Shown: one piece after another, positions 3,832 through 12,577 of the stretch
How the letters are laid out: each line of letters begins with the position of its first letter
How positions within the stretch are numbered: the first letter of the stretch is position 1
Origin: a virus
Taxonomy: Duplodnaviria; Heunggongvirae; Uroviricota; Caudoviricetes
DNA: 12,819 bases
Reading direction: 5' to 3' (one strand)
IMG/VR virus record: IMGVR_UViG_3300030021_000014
The notes under the pieces: generated by a model
The model's database searches: none
Seen by the model: only the letters and a program-made list of their open reading frames with translations
What the model was told of the DNA's origin: nothing
Made by a program: the position numbers and the translations under genes

Positions 3832-4910
3832 CAGAACGGGTCCTCCTGTACTCTGGCTTTTTTCTTTTTCCGCGCGCCGGGATCTTCGGGTTCAGGCAGA
3901 TAAGCATCAGGCGGGCCGACACGGATTTCCGTCAGGGTGCCGTTCTGGTCCTGAGTAAACGTGACTTCCGAAACAAGCAGTTCGGTATTGTCGAAACCAC
4001 AGACCGGATCGAAGACAATCACCCGCTGGTTGGGCTGCCACAGCGTACCGTTACCCTGTCGCCAGCCCTGCACCACATAAGTGGTTTCATCCGTCCGCGC
4101 CGCCCGTTGTCGGGCTTCAAAGTCAGCACGCGCAATACAGCCTGCCCCCGTGGCCTGCCCTGTCTGCCTGATATACATCGGACGGTAACGGGCAATAAAT
4201 GCGTCCTCTGTGCGGGCCCGCAGCGCAGTTGTGGTGGCCTCACCGAAATCATCGTCGTTTCCGGCACGCTGCCCCGCCACCTGGTAAACAGAAAACCGCT
4301 CCCGGATACTCTTCTCCGTATCGCAGGAAAGGATGTTTTCCCCAAGTACCAGCGCGGTATGTGCCCGCGTTGAGCCAATACCGCCAATCACCAGCCTGCC
4401 GTGCGGGTCGTCGTAAGCCAGCGCCTGCTGCTGACCGAGTATTTTGTTGATTACCTCAATCACCGTTTCACCGTGATCAGGCTGAACATCAGGAATAACA
4501 CCCGACGGCGCACCGCTGTTCACCACCTCAATGCCGAAAGGTGCAGCAAGCGCCTGCGCAATCTGCACCAGCGAGCGTCCGTTAAACTGTGTCGGTTCGG
4601 CTGCACAGTCAATCAGCTCAGCCGTCAGACTACGTCCGGCAATACCGGTGCTGACCGAACGGGCATCGTAACGAACGGGAGTCGCCTCCACCCAGCCGGT
4701 GATCACCAGCTCATCACCAATTAGCACTTCCACTTTTGAACCGTTTTTAATGCGCGGCTGAAGCGTGGTGATACCCTCATCTCCCGGCCATTGGCGAGTG
4801 ATCTCCACACTGAAATCCCGCGCCAGCCGTTCAATACCGGCACCGATGCGCACCGATGTCCAGCCATTCCACTCCCGGCCATTTACCCGTAGCGTGACAT
4901 TGTCGTTCAT
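3831..4910 (-). CDS. Mu P (gp44)-like tail protein / late control D-family baseplate hub
   Basis: 359 aa; ATGA overlap with the upstream gene; position after the DNA-circularization-like gene. C-terminus contains a KKKK run. Confidence 0.8.
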   Translation of the reverse strand: MNDNVTLRVNGREWNGWTSVRIGAGIERLARDFSVEITRQWPGDEGITTLQPRIKNGSKVEVLIGDELVITGWVEATPVRYDARSVSTGIAGRSLTAELIDCAAEPTQFNGRSLVQIAQALAAPFGIEVVNSGAPSGVIPDVQPDHGETVIEVINKILGQQQALAYDDPHGRLVIGGIGSTRAHTALVLGENILSCDTEKSIRERFSVYQVAGQRAGNDDDFGEATTTALRARTEDAFIARYRPMYIRQTGQATGAGCIARADFEARQRAARTDETTYVVQGWRQGNGTLWQPNQRVIVFDPVCGFDNTELLVSEVTFTQDQNGTLTEIRVGPPDAYLPEPEDPGARKKKKARVQEDPF

Positions 4911-6235
4911 TGCACTGGCACCTTCAGAGGGATCACCGGCACAAAGCCGGGATGCGTAATGGCATTACGCCGGATAATGTCCGCGTCACGCGCCGCGTTA
5001 TCAAACCAGGTCGCCGCCAGCACCAGCGCGGGTAAAACCTCATCCGGCGTGCGCTGAATGATCCGTGCAGACTGTTCAAGGCGCGTGTTGATATCCGCAT
5101 TCAGATCTGCTTTCACCCGGCGCAGCGCCAGAAACAGCGCATCACTGGTTGTACGGGACAACTCCTTATCAATTGCCGTATTCAGTGTGTCGCGAATGTC
5201 GGTCAGTTCTTCCCACGTTGGCAGGTCAACCGTGTTTTTCACCGCCGGTGCATTGTTCAGTGCCGGATGCGTGACAGAAGGCCAGCCGGTGCTCTGCGCG
5301 GGTGTTGTTGACTGCCCTACTGTGGCATTCTGCATCACCGCGGAAGTTGTGGGCGCAGGCAATCGTGTGACGGCATACGCCGCTTCGCTGATTGCGGTCG
5401 TACGAAGGGTGCTGGCAACCACGTTACGCTGCTGCGTCGCCGTGGCGGTAGTTTTACTGTCCGTTTTCCAGACGCCGCGCGGTTGCAGATCGCTGCCGAG
5501 GCTGACACCGGAAAGCGTTTTGATCATGGTGACCAGGTCGCTGGCGTTACCATAAAGGCGTTTCCCGGTACGCCACATTTTCTGCACCTGCTCAACGAAA
5601 TTTTTGCCTGACGATGGTGGCGGCAGAAGTACCGAGATATCCCCCTGCAACAGCCTGGCGGCATCCGATACGGCAGAATCCACCACTTTCATCGCATCAG
5701 AAACATACCCAAGCATTGTGCTGGCATTACCGACGACGTCGTTCTGCACAAAATCTGCCACGCCATCGATACTGAAACCACTGAAGCTGTCACTGATGCA
5801 GTCATCCAGTGCAGAACAGGATGACATCAGCGTCTGCGCCGTCGCCGCACCTGAAGTGGGGTAAGAGAGTTCTCCCGCTTCGACAAACTTCAGGTCAAAG
5901 CGGACAATACGCCCTTCACTCTTCGATGTGCTGACCCGAACTTCCCCGTCAACACAGACTTTCAGCTCACCGTAAGTCGGATGGACAAGCGTGCCGGGAC
6001 CGGGTTTATTCAGCGCGTCAATCAGGCGATCGCGCTGGTCAAAGCAGTCATCTCCCACCACATAAGCTGTGATGGACGGGCGGAAAGTGATTTTCCCCAG
6101 GTCTTCGGTATAGGGTTTGTCGCGGTTCGGGTATTCGTGCGTTTCCACACGACGACCGGTTCCCGCACTTTCTTCTTCAACCTTAAACGGCACACCGCGA
6201 AATGACGCGTCCTGAAGTCTGTCTTTCCACGTCAT
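4907..6235 (-). CDS. Mu N (gp43)-like DNA circularization protein
   Basis: Preferred start is ATG at 6235 (MTWKDRLQDASFRGVPF...) with GGAG 7 nt upstream. The ORF-track starts at 6277 and 6250 lack an RBS and overlap a hairpin. N-terminal sequence matches the recalled DNA_circ_N signature. Confidence 0.75.
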   Translation of the reverse strand: MTWKDRLQDASFRGVPFKVEEESAGTGRRVETHEYPNRDKPYTEDLGKITFRPSITAYVVGDDCFDQRDRLIDALNKPGPGTLVHPTYGELKVCVDGEVRVSTSKSEGRIVRFDLKFVEAGELSYPTSGAATAQTLMSSCSALDDCISDSFSGFSIDGVADFVQNDVVGNASTMLGYVSDAMKVVDSAVSDAARLLQGDISVLLPPPSSGKNFVEQVQKMWRTGKRLYGNASDLVTMIKTLSGVSLGSDLQPRGVWKTDSKTTATATQQRNVVASTLRTTAISEAAYAVTRLPAPTTSAVMQNATVGQSTTPAQSTGWPSVTHPALNNAPAVKNTVDLPTWEELTDIRDTLNTAIDKELSRTTSDALFLALRRVKADLNADINTRLEQSARIIQRTPDEVLPALVLAATWFDNAARDADIIRRNAITHPGFVPVIPLKVPVQ

Positions 6236-6256
6236 ATAAACTCCGTACATAAAAAA

Positions 6257-6272
6257 TCCCACCGGAGTGGGA
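6257..6272 (-). terminator. Intra-operon terminator-like hairpin plus T6 between the tape measure and gp43-like genes
   Basis: On the minus strand: TCCCAC-TCCG-GTGGGA followed directly by TTTTTT (plus-strand 6251-6256 is A6). Lies 24 nt after the TMP stop and 15 nt before the next start. Confidence 0.35.
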
Positions 6273-6295
6273 CTCATTAACAGATTAATTTTTCA

Positions 6296-8131
6296 TTACC
6301 TGCCAAAGCGCGTATAGCCAACATCATGGCTGACATCAAAACCGCTGGATCGCGTTTCCATAACCCGCATACCCGGAGGCGAATTCACAAAAGAGACCTT
6401 GATCTCACCATCAACTTTTGGCGCAGAAGCTTTGTTAATCATGAAGGGATTCGGGCCTGTGGCACCGGAGGCGTTGTTTGACTGAGCCGGATCTACCGCC
6501 TGATAAGGTGTGTATCCCCGTGCCGGTATTCCCGTCCCATAAGCATCATAAGCACCCGCGCCCCACTGCGCAGAGTTAATGGCATCGACCGTGTCACCGG
6601 AACTGTCGGTAAACCACTCAATAATTGGCTTCAGTTTGTCCCACATATCCTGAAACCACTTAACAACCGGTCCCCAGTTATTGATTACCATCCCCAGCGG
6701 CGACCAGGCAAAAACCTTCTTCAGAAGTTCCCAGCCAGCCTCAAAATAAGGACCAATGGTTTCCCAGAGCTTCTTGAAATAAGGTCCGACAACATCCCAG
6801 TTAGTGATAATTAATCCCGCAGCCAGGGCTATCGCCGTCGCAATCATTCCAATCGGCGTCATCGACATGATCCTGCTGACAATACTGATGGCACCGCCAA
6901 CGCCCATCAATCCCAGTTTCAGAATCGCAAGACCGGCAGCAAGCCCGACGACGCCGCGAATAACCCGGGGATTTTCATCCGCAAACTTCGTGAATTTTTC
7001 CCCTAACTCCCCCAGCCATTGCGTGATATTTTTGGCGTCACCAGAAAATGCGCCGCCAATAGCCGCAAGGCCGTTAGTTGCGGTCCCCGTCATTGCCTCC
7101 CACAGGTTGGACAGCGTACCAAGCTGGGCCTGAACACGTTTATTCAGGCTGGCCTGTTTATTCATCTTCTGCTGGATCTGATCGTAGCCATCCTTTCCTT
7201 TATCGATTAGTGCATTGACCACCTGAAGGGTTTCGGCATCATCACCAAATATTGCCTTAAGTACACCTGTTCGCTTAACGTCGGTCAGTTTTCGCAGCTT
7301 TGCCAGTTGCCTGAACATGTTATCAAGACCGCCAAAACTTCCTTTGCCGTCAGTAAAATCGAGCTGTACCCCGAGTTTCTGGCGGGCCATGATTTTATTG
7401 ACGTCCCTGATTTTCTTAACGCTTAATCCGGACTGGATAACTTTTCGCAGGGCGTTACCTGCCGACTCCCCGTTCATCCCCATCTGATCCATCATGACGC
7501 TGATGGGGGCAAGGCTCTGTGCAGCCTGAAGACCGTCCTTGTTCACCATCTTCAGAACAGAGCTGGTTTTAGTGAAGAAGGACAACATGTTGGTATCGTC
7601 AACACCCAGATAAAACGCCTTCTGGATAGTGTCGAACAGCCCCATCATGTCTTCTGACGCCGTTCCGGTAGCATCCTGCATCTTTGCAGCAAACTCAGCA
7701 GCCGCTTCCGGTGTTTTTTTCAGTTGTACCGCAAGATAAGCTGTCGCTTTACCCACACCGCCAAGAATGTTTTCTGCCGGGATCCCCTGACGCACCAGCA
7801 TCTGCATCATGTTCTGGAAATCAGCCGTTGTACCGGGTAGCTGGTTACCCAGGCCAATAGCCAGTTTATTGATGTCCTGAAAGCTCTTTCCGACCTCGCC
7901 GTTCGCATCCATCATGGCGACTTTCAGCCCGGTGGCGGCGTTTTCCTGATCGGCATAAGATTTCAGGGAAAGCGTCAGACCCGCTGCCAGTCCGCCACCA
8001 AGCGCCAGCCCACCCTGTGACGCTTCTTCCGCCTGGCGTTTAAATCCCCGGATTTTCTTTTGCATTTTCGACAGCGCGGGAGAAAGCCTGTCGACACCGG
8101 TGATCAACGCCTTAAGCTCAAATTCCGCCAT
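6296..8131 (-). CDS. Tail tape measure protein
   Basis: 611 aa, Ala/Gly/Leu/Gln-rich with a hydrophobic segment. Sits between the frameshifted chaperone and the baseplate genes; AGGAG upstream of ATG at 8131. Confidence 0.85.
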   Translation of the reverse strand: MAEFELKALITGVDRLSPALSKMQKKIRGFKRQAEEASQGGLALGGGLAAGLTLSLKSYADQENAATGLKVAMMDANGEVGKSFQDINKLAIGLGNQLPGTTADFQNMMQMLVRQGIPAENILGGVGKATAYLAVQLKKTPEAAAEFAAKMQDATGTASEDMMGLFDTIQKAFYLGVDDTNMLSFFTKTSSVLKMVNKDGLQAAQSLAPISVMMDQMGMNGESAGNALRKVIQSGLSVKKIRDVNKIMARQKLGVQLDFTDGKGSFGGLDNMFRQLAKLRKLTDVKRTGVLKAIFGDDAETLQVVNALIDKGKDGYDQIQQKMNKQASLNKRVQAQLGTLSNLWEAMTGTATNGLAAIGGAFSGDAKNITQWLGELGEKFTKFADENPRVIRGVVGLAAGLAILKLGLMGVGGAISIVSRIMSMTPIGMIATAIALAAGLIITNWDVVGPYFKKLWETIGPYFEAGWELLKKVFAWSPLGMVINNWGPVVKWFQDMWDKLKPIIEWFTDSSGDTVDAINSAQWGAGAYDAYGTGIPARGYTPYQAVDPAQSNNASGATGPNPFMINKASAPKVDGEIKVSFVNSPPGMRVMETRSSGFDVSHDVGYTRFGR

Positions 8132-8542
8132 GTGTGCGTTTCTCCTGCTCTATCCTGTTTGCCTGACTGACCAGCAAGGGAATTTCACTGATCGGCATAT
8201 TCAGCAATTCGAAAGGATTAATGCGCCAGTAGCTGGCGCAGTCAAAGAAGCGATCAGTGAGGTATTCAGCCGTCAGGCCTGGAGGAAAAAACCAGCCACA
8301 AGCCACGCCGCTGCATTCAGGTCTGCCGGAGACATCTGGTCGACAGAGCTTTGCGGCACTTTCGCCAGCCGCACAATGTATTTCGACACCACATGCGCCA
8401 GAAGTCTGACTGACTCATCCTGATTCATCTGGTAGGGATACCCCAGCTCGCGGACATCCTTCCCGGTGGGTTCATCAAACTCCAGTACGGAGAGTGTCTC
8501 ACCATGAGCGATAATCGGTTTCTTTAACTCAAGCTCTTTCAT
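8118..8542 (-). CDS. Tail assembly chaperone, -1 frameshift fusion product (G-T / E-E' analogue)
   Basis: Slippery heptamer T_TTT_TTC on the minus strand (plus coordinates 8285-8291) lies 3 codons before the 0-frame stop. The -1 frame stays open for about 57 more codons to a stop at 8118-8120, 11 nt into the tape measure gene. Confidence 0.55.
8273..8542 (-). CDS. Tail assembly chaperone (short, in-frame product)
   Basis: 89 aa; sits between the tube and tape measure genes, the conserved position of lambda G / P2 E-type chaperones; TAATG coupling to the tube gene. Confidence 0.75.
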   Translation of the reverse strand: MKELELKKPIIAHGETLSVLEFDEPTGKDVRELGYPYQMNQDESVRLLAHVVSKYIVRLAKVPQSSVDQMSPADLNAAAWLVAGFFLQA

Positions 8543-8898
8543 TACTGGTAATCCCCTTCTTCACCGTGGAACTCAAGATCAACCGTGCCTTCTTCGGCAT
8601 TATGGTTCGCTTCGCCGTGCAGCCAGGCGGACGACAATACATAGACCTGACCGTTCGCCAGCTCGGCAGTGATGGTCATCTCATCAGACGAGGTGATTTT
8701 GCTCACCGGAAAATTCTTCGGCACCTTGAAGGTCCCTTTGACATAAGGCGCACGGTGAGTTTCCTTGCGGTCCACTGAACCGTCCAGGCCGATGATGTCA
8801 TCATTGACCGTCCTGTTCATGGGCACCTCAATGCCGCCGGTCAGCGATAGCTGCTGACCGTCAATTTTGAAATAACAGGTTCCCCCGATACGGGCCAT
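8542..8898 (-). CDS. Tail tube protein (Mu gpM-like)
   Basis: 118 aa, immediately downstream of the sheath with TAATG coupling; typical size and position for a contractile-tail tube protein. Confidence 0.8.
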   Translation of the reverse strand: MARIGGTCYFKIDGQQLSLTGGIEVPMNRTVNDDIIGLDGSVDRKETHRAPYVKGTFKVPKNFPVSKITSSDEMTITAELANGQVYVLSSAWLHGEANHNAEEGTVDLEFHGEEGDYQ

Positions 8899-10394
8899 TA
8901 TGCAGACTCCTCTGAATACTGAAGACGGAACTGGTTAACCACGGCAAAGACACGCAACTGGTTAACATAGTCAGACGGGAACAGCGTGTTCAGGCGGTTC
9001 GGATCGCTGGCATCACGCTCCACAACCAGGTACTGCTTAAACAGTTCGTAGTTTTCCACGATCCCCGCACGCTCAAGCTGACGGTAGGTTGCCAGCAGTT
9101 CCCCTTTGATCACCGCCGGTGTGACAATCGCCTGACCGGGACCAAAGCGGGTACCGTCGCTGGCAAGCTTGTGACGCCCGTACTTACTGGTAATGACGGA
9201 TTTCAGTTTGCGCAGCACATACGCGCTGGTATGCAGCGTCTCGCTGTCGAGGTAGCTGTTATCCGCAACACCGTAAGCGTTTTTCCTGTACGTGGTGACA
9301 TCACGCTGAATGCGCAGCACCCCGCTTTCGACATACGCCGTTGCCACGCCATGAGACAGCAGGGTCTGTTGTTCGGTCATCGTGAACCGTTTCCCCTTCG
9401 GCGCAGGCAGCATACCCACCAGCTCACCGGTCTGCGTGGGACGTGCCGGATCGTTGCGAATAAACACCGCTGCGCGGGCGGTACGGCTTGCCGCCAGCTC
9501 GTCGGCAGGCGTCTGGGTCTCTTTTTCGTATCCCGCCAGGGTAATGTGCTGCTGGTTAAACTGGTCACCTGCGTTCACCAGTTCTGACAGCGTGCCGATC
9601 TTTGCCGTATACACATGACCATACAGCTGACGCGCATAGCTCCAGCGACCGCTGGTATCGTTCATCTCTGTCACCAGCGTGTTAACGGAGGCCGTGTCGT
9701 TGAACGGCAGGCCAATATAATCAAACGGCTCATCCGCCATTGCAGCCACCGCGCCGGTGAGAACCGGAGCGCCCGTTCCGGCGCTCCCCGTCGCCACAGC
9801 AATCTGTACGCCCGCTGGCAGCACTTCGCCCCCACCAAAGCCGTAGTAATTGAGGCTGACAGGAATTTCATTCCCGCAAAGCCCCTTATGACGCGCGGTC
9901 AGCGTGACCACGCCTGCCGAAGATGAGGCCGTAAACGGCAGGGCCGGAACGGCATTAATGGCATCTTTGATACTGCTGGCAATCGTCGTGACGTTATCGC
10001 CGTTGGTCACCGGTGCCTGCACGCGGGTACGTCCCACATAAACATTCACCGTGCCGGTTTCGGTTGCCGCCCCGGTCACCGTCAGCGTAACCGTTGCCGC
10101 CGCGCCCGTTGATTCAGGAACGGCAATTACATACAGTTCACCAAACGGGTCGGTCTGGCGATAAGCCTCGACCATACGCGCCAGCTGACTTCCCGCACCA
10201 CAAATCTGGCGTGCATAGTCTGCCGACGGCATCAGCACCAGACTGTTGGCAACAATCTCTGCACCGTTATTGGCATGACCAATCAGCAGCGATGCTCCGC
10301 TGTCCTGTGCAGTATTCGCAGCCTGGTTATCCATTTCCGCATAAAACAGCGGAACCAGCGTATTCGACGGAATGGTGTTAAAGCTTATCGTCAT
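8898..10394 (-). CDS. Tail sheath protein (Mu gpL-like)
   Basis: 498 aa (MTISFNTIPSNT...); size, composition and position upstream of the tube gene. Confidence 0.9.
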   Translation of the reverse strand: MTISFNTIPSNTLVPLFYAEMDNQAANTAQDSGASLLIGHANNGAEIVANSLVLMPSADYARQICGAGSQLARMVEAYRQTDPFGELYVIAVPESTGAAATVTLTVTGAATETGTVNVYVGRTRVQAPVTNGDNVTTIASSIKDAINAVPALPFTASSSAGVVTLTARHKGLCGNEIPVSLNYYGFGGGEVLPAGVQIAVATGSAGTGAPVLTGAVAAMADEPFDYIGLPFNDTASVNTLVTEMNDTSGRWSYARQLYGHVYTAKIGTLSELVNAGDQFNQQHITLAGYEKETQTPADELAASRTARAAVFIRNDPARPTQTGELVGMLPAPKGKRFTMTEQQTLLSHGVATAYVESGVLRIQRDVTTYRKNAYGVADNSYLDSETLHTSAYVLRKLKSVITSKYGRHKLASDGTRFGPGQAIVTPAVIKGELLATYRQLERAGIVENYELFKQYLVVERDASDPNRLNTLFPSDYVNQLRVFAVVNQFRLQYSEESA

Positions 10395-10556: not shown

Positions 10557-11117
10557 TCAGGAAGGAAGGGGTATTTCGGTGTGATGTTCGATATCGCCGT
10601 CAGGCCCGTTACCGGGATCGAGATAATCAACATCAATCGCCAGCGTTCGCAGTTCATCCAGACTGTTCAGGTCATCCTGCTGGCGGGTATCGTCTTCGGT
10701 CAGCTCGCTGATGACCGAAAAATCGAACTGATAAATCAGCTCATGACGATTCAGATCCAGCAGCGTGCCGCCGTCATAGGTAATCGGGTTACCACACGCT
10801 TCCGGGTTCCAGCCCAGCAGAGCCTTAAAGAGCATCTGCCGGACATCGTCCACCACATCATACGAGGCAAACTGACCGCGCTCATCACGCCCGTTACTCA
10901 GTATGACAACCACGGAGAAGCCCTCTTTCAGCTCCTGCCAGTAGTCGGTCTGGCTTTTGTTTTCTCCCGGAGAGTCATCACCCGGTACCACATATGCCGC
11001 CGGGAGCTTCAGCTTTCCGACCTCCGGCAGATTTTTGAACTGGGCCGCGCCTGCCACCCGGTTTTCAAAATACGGACAGCGGGCACGCAGCGCAGCAATA
11101 ACAGGAGTCAGTTTCAT
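10557..11117 (-). CDS. Tail terminator / completion candidate (Gp37-family-like)
   Basis: 186 aa; ATGA overlap with the gp10-like gene; function inferred from its position between head-tail joining genes and the sheath. Confidence 0.55.
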   Translation of the reverse strand: MKLTPVIAALRARCPYFENRVAGAAQFKNLPEVGKLKLPAAYVVPGDDSPGENKSQTDYWQELKEGFSVVVILSNGRDERGQFASYDVVDDVRQMLFKALLGWNPEACGNPITYDGGTLLDLNRHELIYQFDFSVISELTEDDTRQQDDLNSLDELRTLAIDVDYLDPGNGPDGDIEHHTEIPLPS

Positions 11118-11620
11118 CTGTGTCGTCGCTCCGGCTTCAGTGATTTACGCAATTCCCGCGCCAGAAAATAGCGTGTCCAGCTGCGGTTCTTTTCAAGCGT
11201 TTCCACCATGAAGTTATTACGTGGAGCCAGTCGCCAGCCGCTGCCACCGGATGCACCACGATGATGGCTGCGACGACGCTTTGCCCCTCGCCTCACGCCA
11301 TAGAACAAAAAAGCCGGATAAAAATCACCGGTGATACGGCGGTTTCCCTCTCCATTACGCTGGTTAGGGGCTATACGTGCCATAAAACCAGGGCGATGTT
11401 TACTGGCTCTGGGTACCATGTAACCAATCGAACGAGCCAGGCGTCCGGTCTGATAACCGGGGTTTTCACCCGGTGCCGACCGCGCACGGCGCATCACCAG
11501 CCGACGGGCATCACGCATATGACGCTGACCAATCGTGACAAACGCCCGCCGGACACGGGCGCGGTTAAAGCGCATCTCCGCGGGCTGCTGAAAATCAACG
11601 TGCAAAAAGGAAGTCGTCAT
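11114..11620 (-). CDS. HK97 gp10-family head-tail joining protein
   Basis: 168 aa, basic; GGAGG 5-6 nt upstream of ATG at 11620; position after the head closure gene. Confidence 0.65.
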   Translation of the reverse strand: MTTSFLHVDFQQPAEMRFNRARVRRAFVTIGQRHMRDARRLVMRRARSAPGENPGYQTGRLARSIGYMVPRASKHRPGFMARIAPNQRNGEGNRRITGDFYPAFLFYGVRRGAKRRRSHHRGASGGSGWRLAPRNNFMVETLEKNRSWTRYFLARELRKSLKPERRHR

Positions 11621-12528: not shown

Positions 12529-12550
12529 GATTCTTCACCCGTCAGAACAG

Positions 12551-12570
12551 GGGGCGCGGTTCCGCGCCCC
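12551..12570 (-). promoter_or_regulatory. Perfect GC-rich hairpin just after the major capsid stop codon
   Basis: GGGGCGCG-GTTC-CGCGCCCC: 8-9 bp all-GC stem, 7 nt after the capsid stop and 22 nt before the next ATG. No clean U-tract follows on the minus strand (CUGUUCUG). Confidence 0.4.
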
Positions 12571-12577
12571 TGAGTGA

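Follow-up and report, generated by a model that had tools for sequence, protein, structure and literature searches.

What is a terminator-like hairpin doing in the middle of a phage tail operon? The locus that raises this question lies between the tape measure gene and the following Mu-N-like baseplate gene (N) in a stretch of viral DNA of 12,819 nucleotides (IMG/VR record IMGVR_UViG_3300030021_000014), the whole of which we call the window. An earlier note on this DNA, made from the letters alone, had proposed that the hairpin could act as a partial terminator or attenuator, lowering the expression of the baseplate and fibre genes, or as an element of RNA processing or stability.

Judging by similarity, the window belongs to a lambdoid prophage of the SfI/SfII/SfV type whose tail is Mu-like. 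Over this region the identity is 99.1% with Shigella phage SfI, 98.3% with SfII and 97.0% with SfV. Of 5426 complete Escherichia coli genomes, 1092 (about a fifth) have a match to a 291-nt query spanning the junction, so the question concerns a common prophage family.

The hairpin and its place in the tail operon

The tail genes all lie on the minus strand (Table 1) and are tightly packed. The hairpin stands 24 nt past the tape measure stop and 15 nt ahead of the ATG at 6235, on the coding strand. The earlier note had called this the only sizeable gap of the tail operon, which is essentially right for the tail genes. There is one other annotated tail spacer, of 141 nt (8132-8272), between the chaperone and the tape measure gene, and it is filled by an extension of the chaperone in the -1 frame. 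Elsewhere between the tail genes the spacers range from -26 to +8 nt, and a spacer of 49 nt is found further upstream (12529-12577).

The chaperone extension deserves a remark of its own. A slippery T TTT TTC sits at 8291-8285 (minus) in the zero frame, near the end of the chaperone gene, and the -1 frame is open to 8118, overlapping the tape measure start at 8131 and covering the 141-nt spacer (window 8118-8306). The extension is a probable product of programmed -1 frameshifting.

Table 1. Features around the hairpin in the window, with the cargo found at the same junction in related loci
Feature	Position	Strand	Basis and remarks
Sheath gene	8898-10394	minus	Pfam
Tube gene	8542-8898	minus	Pfam
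Tail assembly chaperone gene	8273-8542	minus	Pfam
Tail tape measure gene	6296-8131	minus	Pfam PF10145 PhageMin_Tail, E = 1.3e-26; named tape measure in SfI, SfII, SfV and E. coli genomes
Tape measure stop TAA	6298-6296	minus	Sequence
Spacer from tape measure stop to hairpin core	6273-6295	minus	23 nt; empty slot in the window, position of cargo in relatives (270-1000 nt there, unrelated low-GC genes)
Hairpin core	6257-6272	minus	TCCCAC 6272-6267, loop TCCG 6266-6263, GTGGGA 6262-6257; sequence, fold, covariation
U-tract (T6)	6251-6256	minus	Directly 3' of the stem; sequence; T-tract columns (nearly) invariant in alignment A2
Shine-Dalgarno GGAG	6241-6244	minus	5 nt before ATG 6235; sequence; CCGGAG/CGGAG kept in relatives
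N, Mu-N-like 'DNA circularisation' tail/baseplate gene	4907-6235	minus	Pfam PF07157 DNA_circ_N, E = 6.9e-34; start codon ATG 6235-6233 (PGAP starts, conservation)
Homologues of Mu gp44, gp45, gp46, gp47 and gp48		minus	Pfam
Cargo in relatives	L084 822-1316; L085 778-1155; L092 1702-2079; L056/L048 909-1439		
Reverse-strand cargo in relatives	L086 754-1140; L087 755-1201	minus	
Further cargo gaps	L098, L104, L110, L118, L122, L125, L126		

The anatomy first described for the hairpin, a 6-bp stem with a 4-nt loop and six Ts behind it on the minus strand, is confirmed from the sequence. All six pairs of the core are perfect, four of them G-C, and the loop is a tetraloop of the UNCG type closed by a C-G pair. 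The stem can be extended to 9 bp (6275-6254) by G-U, A-U and G-U pairs. The hairpin has a free energy of -13.5 kcal/mol (ViennaRNA) and stays intact in the fold of an 86-nt context (z = -3.25).

Is such a structure to be expected in DNA of this composition? We defined a strict pattern: a perfect stem, 6 bp or longer and with four or more G-C pairs, a loop of 3-8 nt and, immediately after the stem, six or more Ts. This pattern has a single match on the two strands of the window, the hairpin at 6257-6272, and any match at all occurs in just 11 of 2000 dinucleotide shuffles, which rules out a chance occurrence. A looser, generic terminator scan is unselective, with 18 sites against 13.5 +/- 4.4 expected. 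A bidirectional terminator is also ruled out; the plus strand reads CTCATTAACAG after the hairpin, which is not a T-tract, and the strict scan is empty there. The element thus has what is looked for in an intrinsic terminator: a GC-rich, short-loop hairpin with an adjoining U-tract, on the transcribed strand past a coding region, at an above-chance frequency.

Two other sites in the window may be mentioned here. A perfect 8-bp hairpin, AAAGCCGC-TGTTT-GCGGCTTT, is found at 635-655, just 3' of a minus-strand ORF (659-1234) that is probably a gene of the tail fibre region; this hairpin may be a further terminator, or it may mark the edge of a module. A weak terminator-like site at 11326-11341 (minus) falls inside the ORF 11114-11620, and the SfII record marks this site too as a putative terminator, within SfII_10. 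Lying inside a coding region, this site is probably prediction noise.

Conservation of the hairpin and the cargo slot

The hairpin is shared with phages in which N has diverged considerably, and its stem has changed on the way (Table 2). We scanned species-representative genomes and obtained 80 loci, 42 of the Enterobacterales type and 38 more distant (Gilliamella, beta- and alpha-proteobacteria, Pseudomonas). A hairpin with a T-tract lies within 60 nt of the N start in 31 of the 42 Enterobacterales loci, against a background of 0.013 per 60 nt on the same strand elsewhere. Only two of the 38 distant loci have one, and the gap there is usually 0-25 nt. A general feature of Mu-like tails is therefore ruled out, since the hairpin is absent from Mu (4-nt gap), from SfIV (24-nt gap) and from 36 of the 38 distant relatives.

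Table 2. The hairpin at the tape measure/N junction in named phages
Phages	5' half of stem	Loop	3' half of stem	Following tract	Slot
Window, SfI, SfII, SfV	TCCCAC	TCCG	GTGGGA	T6	Empty
YeP2 (N 58% identical)	ACCCAC	TTCG	GTGGGT	T6	Empty
EPP-1 and E. coli IrN (L085)	GCCCAC	TTCG	GTGGGC	T6	PH-domain gene
ST64B and 118970_sal3 (N 46-53%)	ACCTGC	TCCG	GCAGGT	TTTCTTAT	Empty

Among the 31 loci with a hairpin, 24 have the loop UCCG or UUCG. Stem sequences vary, with CCCGC/GCGGG, CCCAC/GTGGG, ACCGC/GCGGT and CCGCC/GGCGG among them, and in most loci the end of the hairpin is a near-constant 18-23 nt from the start codon of N. For a covariation analysis we assembled an alignment (A2) of 25 distinct stretches of fixed extent, from -58 to +6 relative to the start codon. 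In this alignment 96% of the cells are paired, and four of the six pairs have changed on both sides, that is, in a compensatory manner. The covariation score is 0.418 compared with 0.151 +/- 0.024 in shuffles, none of 500 of which reach it, and controls with slid partners give at most 0.08. RNAalifold independently predicts the same six pairs. The sequences of A2 were picked for having a hairpin within the fixed extent, so the covariation test complements the count of 31 in 42 and is not independent of it.

These comparisons argue that the structure of the hairpin is under selection across genera, and that the hairpin is a genuine, selected element of the intrinsic (Rho-independent) terminator type, lying in the late operon on its coding strand. 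A riboswitch or attenuator leader is ruled out as a candidate: ahead of the hairpin A2 shows neither sequence conservation nor a conserved alternative structure, the region 5900-6700 has no Rfam match at E <= 1, and the stop codon is just 23 nt from the stem.

A separate observation concerns SfIV (L094 1116-1141), VIT_AJPSC and vB_EcoM-720R4. These phages have the baseplate genes in common with the window, and a different tape measure end and junction. The similarity begins only about 12 nt inside N, and the annotated N there has a different, longer N-terminus. From this we place a recombination breakpoint at the junction.

What else occupies the junction? Our first scan of IMG/VR, with the N protein, returned loci that are 99-100% identical and of no use for covariation, and it exposed the classes of cargo. 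In many relatives of the SfV/ST64B type, in E. coli, Edwardsiella, Serratia and IMG/VR loci, the tape measure/N junction holds extra genes. At least ten unrelated low-GC genes are found there, on either strand. They include a bacterial PH-domain protein (bPH_1, PF08000; E. coli IrN, EPP-1 and Edwardsiella), two proteins, of 164 and 176 aa, without a Pfam match, membrane-anchored tRNA_anti-like OB-fold proteins encoded on the other strand, one Clp-protease-like and one RepL-like protein (the latter a weak match) and several small membrane or secreted proteins. In most cargo-bearing loci the GC content of the cargo gap is 0.29-0.43, compared with 0.50-0.56 in the N gene. PADLOC gave no meaningful match for the cargo and no known defence family.

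The presence of the hairpin mostly goes with the orientation of the cargo. Forward-strand cargo is followed by a hairpin and T-tract in eight loci (L084, L085, L092, L105, L106, L112, L122 and L056). The clear reverse-strand cargo loci are without the forward hairpin, and two of them (L086, L087) carry a different hairpin beside the tape measure stop.

Taken together, the comparisons identify the junction as a previously undescribed slot for accessory genes; the literature yielded nothing specific on a terminator or a hotspot at this junction. A slot of this kind in a common E. coli prophage family is a practical place to seek superinfection-exclusion or defence genes.

Transcription through the hairpin and its possible role

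The late genes of these phages are expected to be transcribed under antitermination. In SfII the gene of a Q antiterminator (SfII_48; PF06530, E = 1.3e-33) precedes the holin, lysin, terminase, head and tail genes, and ST64B has an annotated Q (STMMW_20151). Q lies outside the window, and we infer its presence from phages that are 97-99% identical in this region. The Q-modified polymerase of lambdoid phages resists intrinsic terminators (PMC3851460, PMC2629481).

Transcription across a homologous hairpin can be followed in ST64B, for which per-gene TPM values in Salmonella Typhimurium D23580 are available (Owen et al. 2020, Table S5; PMC7067206). The ST64B hairpin lies between STMMW_19921 (tape measure) and STMMW_19911 (N), at a junction with the D23580 coordinates 2074865-2074897, and has a U-tract, UUUCUUAU, that is weaker than the U6 of the window. 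We call 'induced' the four conditions in which late transcription is highest, and 'uninduced' the other 13. The values, which are per gene, unreplicated in the table and low in uninduced conditions, show a small step at the hairpin: after peroxide shock, tape measure, N and P have 36.2, 30.6 and 31.1 TPM, and after nitric oxide shock 40.7, 29.9 and 30.1 (PMC7067206). Over the induced conditions the N/tape measure ratio is 0.73-0.90, and the mean level of the baseplate genes is 0.93-0.96 times that of late genes near the promoter (holin, lysozyme, terminase, portal). At the resolution of per-gene TPM, read-through at the ST64B hairpin is thus near-complete.

The uninduced conditions look somewhat different. 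There the tube, chaperone and tape measure genes are above the baseline of the operon (tape measure/terL about 1.8), and downstream this excess is largely gone. The ratio of downstream genes to tape measure is 0.68 in uninduced and 0.88 in induced conditions and rises with induction (Spearman 0.61, p = 0.009). Coming from unreplicated per-gene values, the trend gives a hint of what would be seen if unmodified polymerase stopped at the hairpin and Q-modified polymerase read through it. The supplements of PMC7067206 list no transcription start site or ncRNA at the ST64B junction. As a side observation, the levels of STMMW_19921-19951 (PMC7067206, Table S5) suggest an internal promoter near the ST64B tube gene that would be active in lysogens.

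The reading we prefer, with a probability of roughly one half, is that the hairpin, standing where the cargo slot ends on its 3' side, is a terminator that Q can bypass, one that stops unmodified polymerase and is read through in lytic growth. During lytic growth, a Q-modified, terminator-resistant RNA polymerase would pass the hairpin, leaving expression of the baseplate and fibre genes almost undiminished. Polymerase without Q would stop there, sparing the baseplate genes of a repressed prophage. Such polymerase may come from a cargo gene in the slot or from weak, hypothetical internal promoters in the sheath, tube and tape measure region. With a Q-bypassable terminator already in place, genes inserted just upstream would be insulated from those downstream, which would explain why the junction collects cargo. 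That unmodified polymerase terminates at the hairpin, and that this is the function selected for, we infer.

Several points speak against this account. About 22 of the hairpin-bearing loci have an empty slot, and so no cargo transcript to insulate. A simple sigma-70 consensus scan finds no promoter before the forward cargo of L084, L085 and L092; in L085 a TATAAT is visible, at a 15-nt spacer from TTGGCA. In the tape measure gene of the window the same kind of scan gives a single weak match (9/12). Furthermore, no hairpin was detected before N in L118 and L125 despite their forward-strand cargo.

More tentatively, and with the odds rather against it, the terminator may be a 'docking site' that phages of the SfV/ST64B type maintain within their late operon, and not a by-product of cargo: it would silence the baseplate genes in the lysogen and in consequence make the junction a safe landing place, at which accessory genes can come in, be swapped and be expressed while tail assembly goes on undisturbed. 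If this is true, terminators in antiterminated operons would predict, and partly cause, hotspots of accessory genes.

How does the original proposal fare, that a partial terminator or attenuator on the late transcript keeps the baseplate and fibre proteins at a lower dose than sheath, tube and tape measure? The hairpin does stand exactly where the tube and tape measure genes give way to those of the baseplate, empty-slot phages of several genera have kept it, and ST64B has a small step at it. The four upstream tail genes of ST64B also average about twice the baseplate genes. However, this two-fold excess comes from peaks at the tube (122-132 TPM) and chaperone (67-74 TPM) and not from a step at the hairpin. 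The same tail architecture does without the hairpin in SfIV, Mu, distant relatives and relatives with reverse-strand cargo. Antitermination by Q operates in this phage group, and because of this, and of the nearly undiminished baseplate genes of induced ST64B, a strong attenuator is unlikely. Uniform coverage across the site, which the earlier note had named as the result that would speak against its idea, is nearly what the per-gene TPM of the homologous ST64B locus show. We therefore regard the proposal as unsupported, and attenuation as an unlikely selected role; a weak attenuating or RNA-stabilising effect, with a step of up to about 10-25%, may exist.

Could the hairpin be the leftover terminator of a deleted cargo cassette, such as the PH-domain gene of L085 and EPP-1, now without function? 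A moron by definition brings a terminator of its own (PMC3594210), some relatives do without the hairpin, and the window hairpin, together with about 20 nt on its 5' side, is homologous to what stands directly behind the PH-domain gene of L085. A remnant without function would be expected to decay, not covary, and yet the roughly 22 empty-slot loci, from many genera, keep compensated stems, the T-tract, UNCG loops and mostly constant spacing. For this reason we find a vestige rather unlikely.

Quite doubtful, too, is a role in protecting or processing RNA 3' ends, by which the hairpin would block 3'-to-5' exonucleases after cleavage or occasional termination and so stabilise the sheath, tube and tape measure mRNA. 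A C(UNCG)G tetraloop hairpin is stable, and the upstream tail genes of ST64B are more abundant than the downstream ones. But the tape measure has just 1.1-1.4 times the level of N, the peak of abundance is at the tube, two genes away, and the U-tract, which such a role does not need, is the most conserved part.

Least probable is a translational element that uncouples N from the tape measure, masks the in-frame ATGs at 6277 and 6250 or frees the ribosome-binding site of N from upstream structure: N is indeed the only tail gene without a stop/start overlap, the hairpin keeps its near-constant distance to the start codon and the extended stem takes in part of ATG 6277, but that distance is expected anyway from maximal compaction of U-tract, Shine-Dalgarno and spacer, the conserved U-tract is left unexplained, and masking cannot be the selected role because neither ATG is conserved.

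Known counterparts and the start codon of N

The terminator itself is already known. In the SfII record (KC736978.1, 11928-11966) a 'putative rho-independent terminator' is annotated at the same site, between the tape measure and the tail/DNA circulation gene, in a region that is 98.3% identical over 801 nt; the feature takes in both the hairpin and its T-tract. It was predicted by computation and carries no comment on function, and the SfI and SfV records have no terminator annotation. The SfIV paper, from the same group as SfII, used ARNold for terminator predictions and describes Q, leaving this terminator undiscussed (PMC3851460). What is new here is the pattern of conservation with compensatory changes, and the cargo slot.

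On its own, the hairpin is an ordinary intrinsic terminator. It resembles canonical E. coli C(UNCG)G terminators in its short GC-rich stem, its UCCG loop closed by C-G, the U6 directly after it and its place just past a stop codon. UUCG-type tetraloops were reportedly found to be over-represented in E. coli terminators by d'Aubenton Carafa and colleagues in 1990. The window element differs from the canonical ones in that the stem is short (6 bp, 9 when extended), there is no upstream A-tract, and it lies inside a long operon and not at its end. Given the short stem and the lack of an A-tract, it is a unidirectional terminator of probably moderate strength.

A second point of comparison is the moron, defined by its own promoter and terminator, a different GC content and expression from a repressed prophage (PMC3594210). 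The relatives recall lambdoid moron cassettes such as HK97 gene 15, which lies between tail chaperone and tape measure, in that genes of deviating GC content stand at one fixed tail junction, with a terminator downstream. They differ in that the simple scan finds no consensus promoter upstream of their forward cargo. The window differs further, as it has the terminator without cargo; with its slot empty (23 nt) and cargo in relatives only, it holds a slot and a terminator, not a moron. Conservation of the terminator in many empty-slot phages is not predicted by the classical moron model.

The third is lambda-type Q-dependent late transcription. As in that system, Q is upstream of the lysis, head and tail genes in SfII and ST64B, and the late levels of ST64B are near-uniform across the hairpin. 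In the lambda-type system read-through is a property of the modified polymerase; at the present terminator the same would hold by analogy. The comparisons show that selection can clearly act, across genera, on the structure of a terminator that stands mid-way in a late operon under antitermination. The case also advises caution before a terminator-like hairpin in the late operon of a lambdoid phage is taken for a dosage attenuator.

Finally, the comparisons bear on the annotation of N. In-frame ATGs are present on the minus strand at 6277 and 6250, upstream of the one at 6235. The earlier note had the hairpin overlapping both, which holds in part for the first: 6277 abuts the hairpin and partly enters the extended stem, while 6250 comes directly after the T-tract. 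The same note took 6235 to be the real start, and this is borne out. PGAP starts N at ATGACGTGG (6235) in all the E. coli genomes examined, and the conservation of the protein begins there (MTWKDRL, with MSWKDKL and MAWKDRL in the orthologues of YeP2 and EPP-1). The upstream ATGs are not conserved. The codon at 6277 is ATT in SfV, that at 6250 is ATA in L085 and L106, and the sequence upstream of GGAG-N5-ATG is fully divergent among relatives.

The GenBank records of the Shigella phages begin N elsewhere, at the equivalent of 6277 in SfII (SfII_17) and of 6250 in SfV (orf15) and SfI (SfI_0017). Conservation, the GGAG and the PGAP starts favour 6235, and these three records probably begin N too far upstream, so that our analysis offers a corrected start for each. 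The annotated N start of SfII lies inside that record's own terminator feature.
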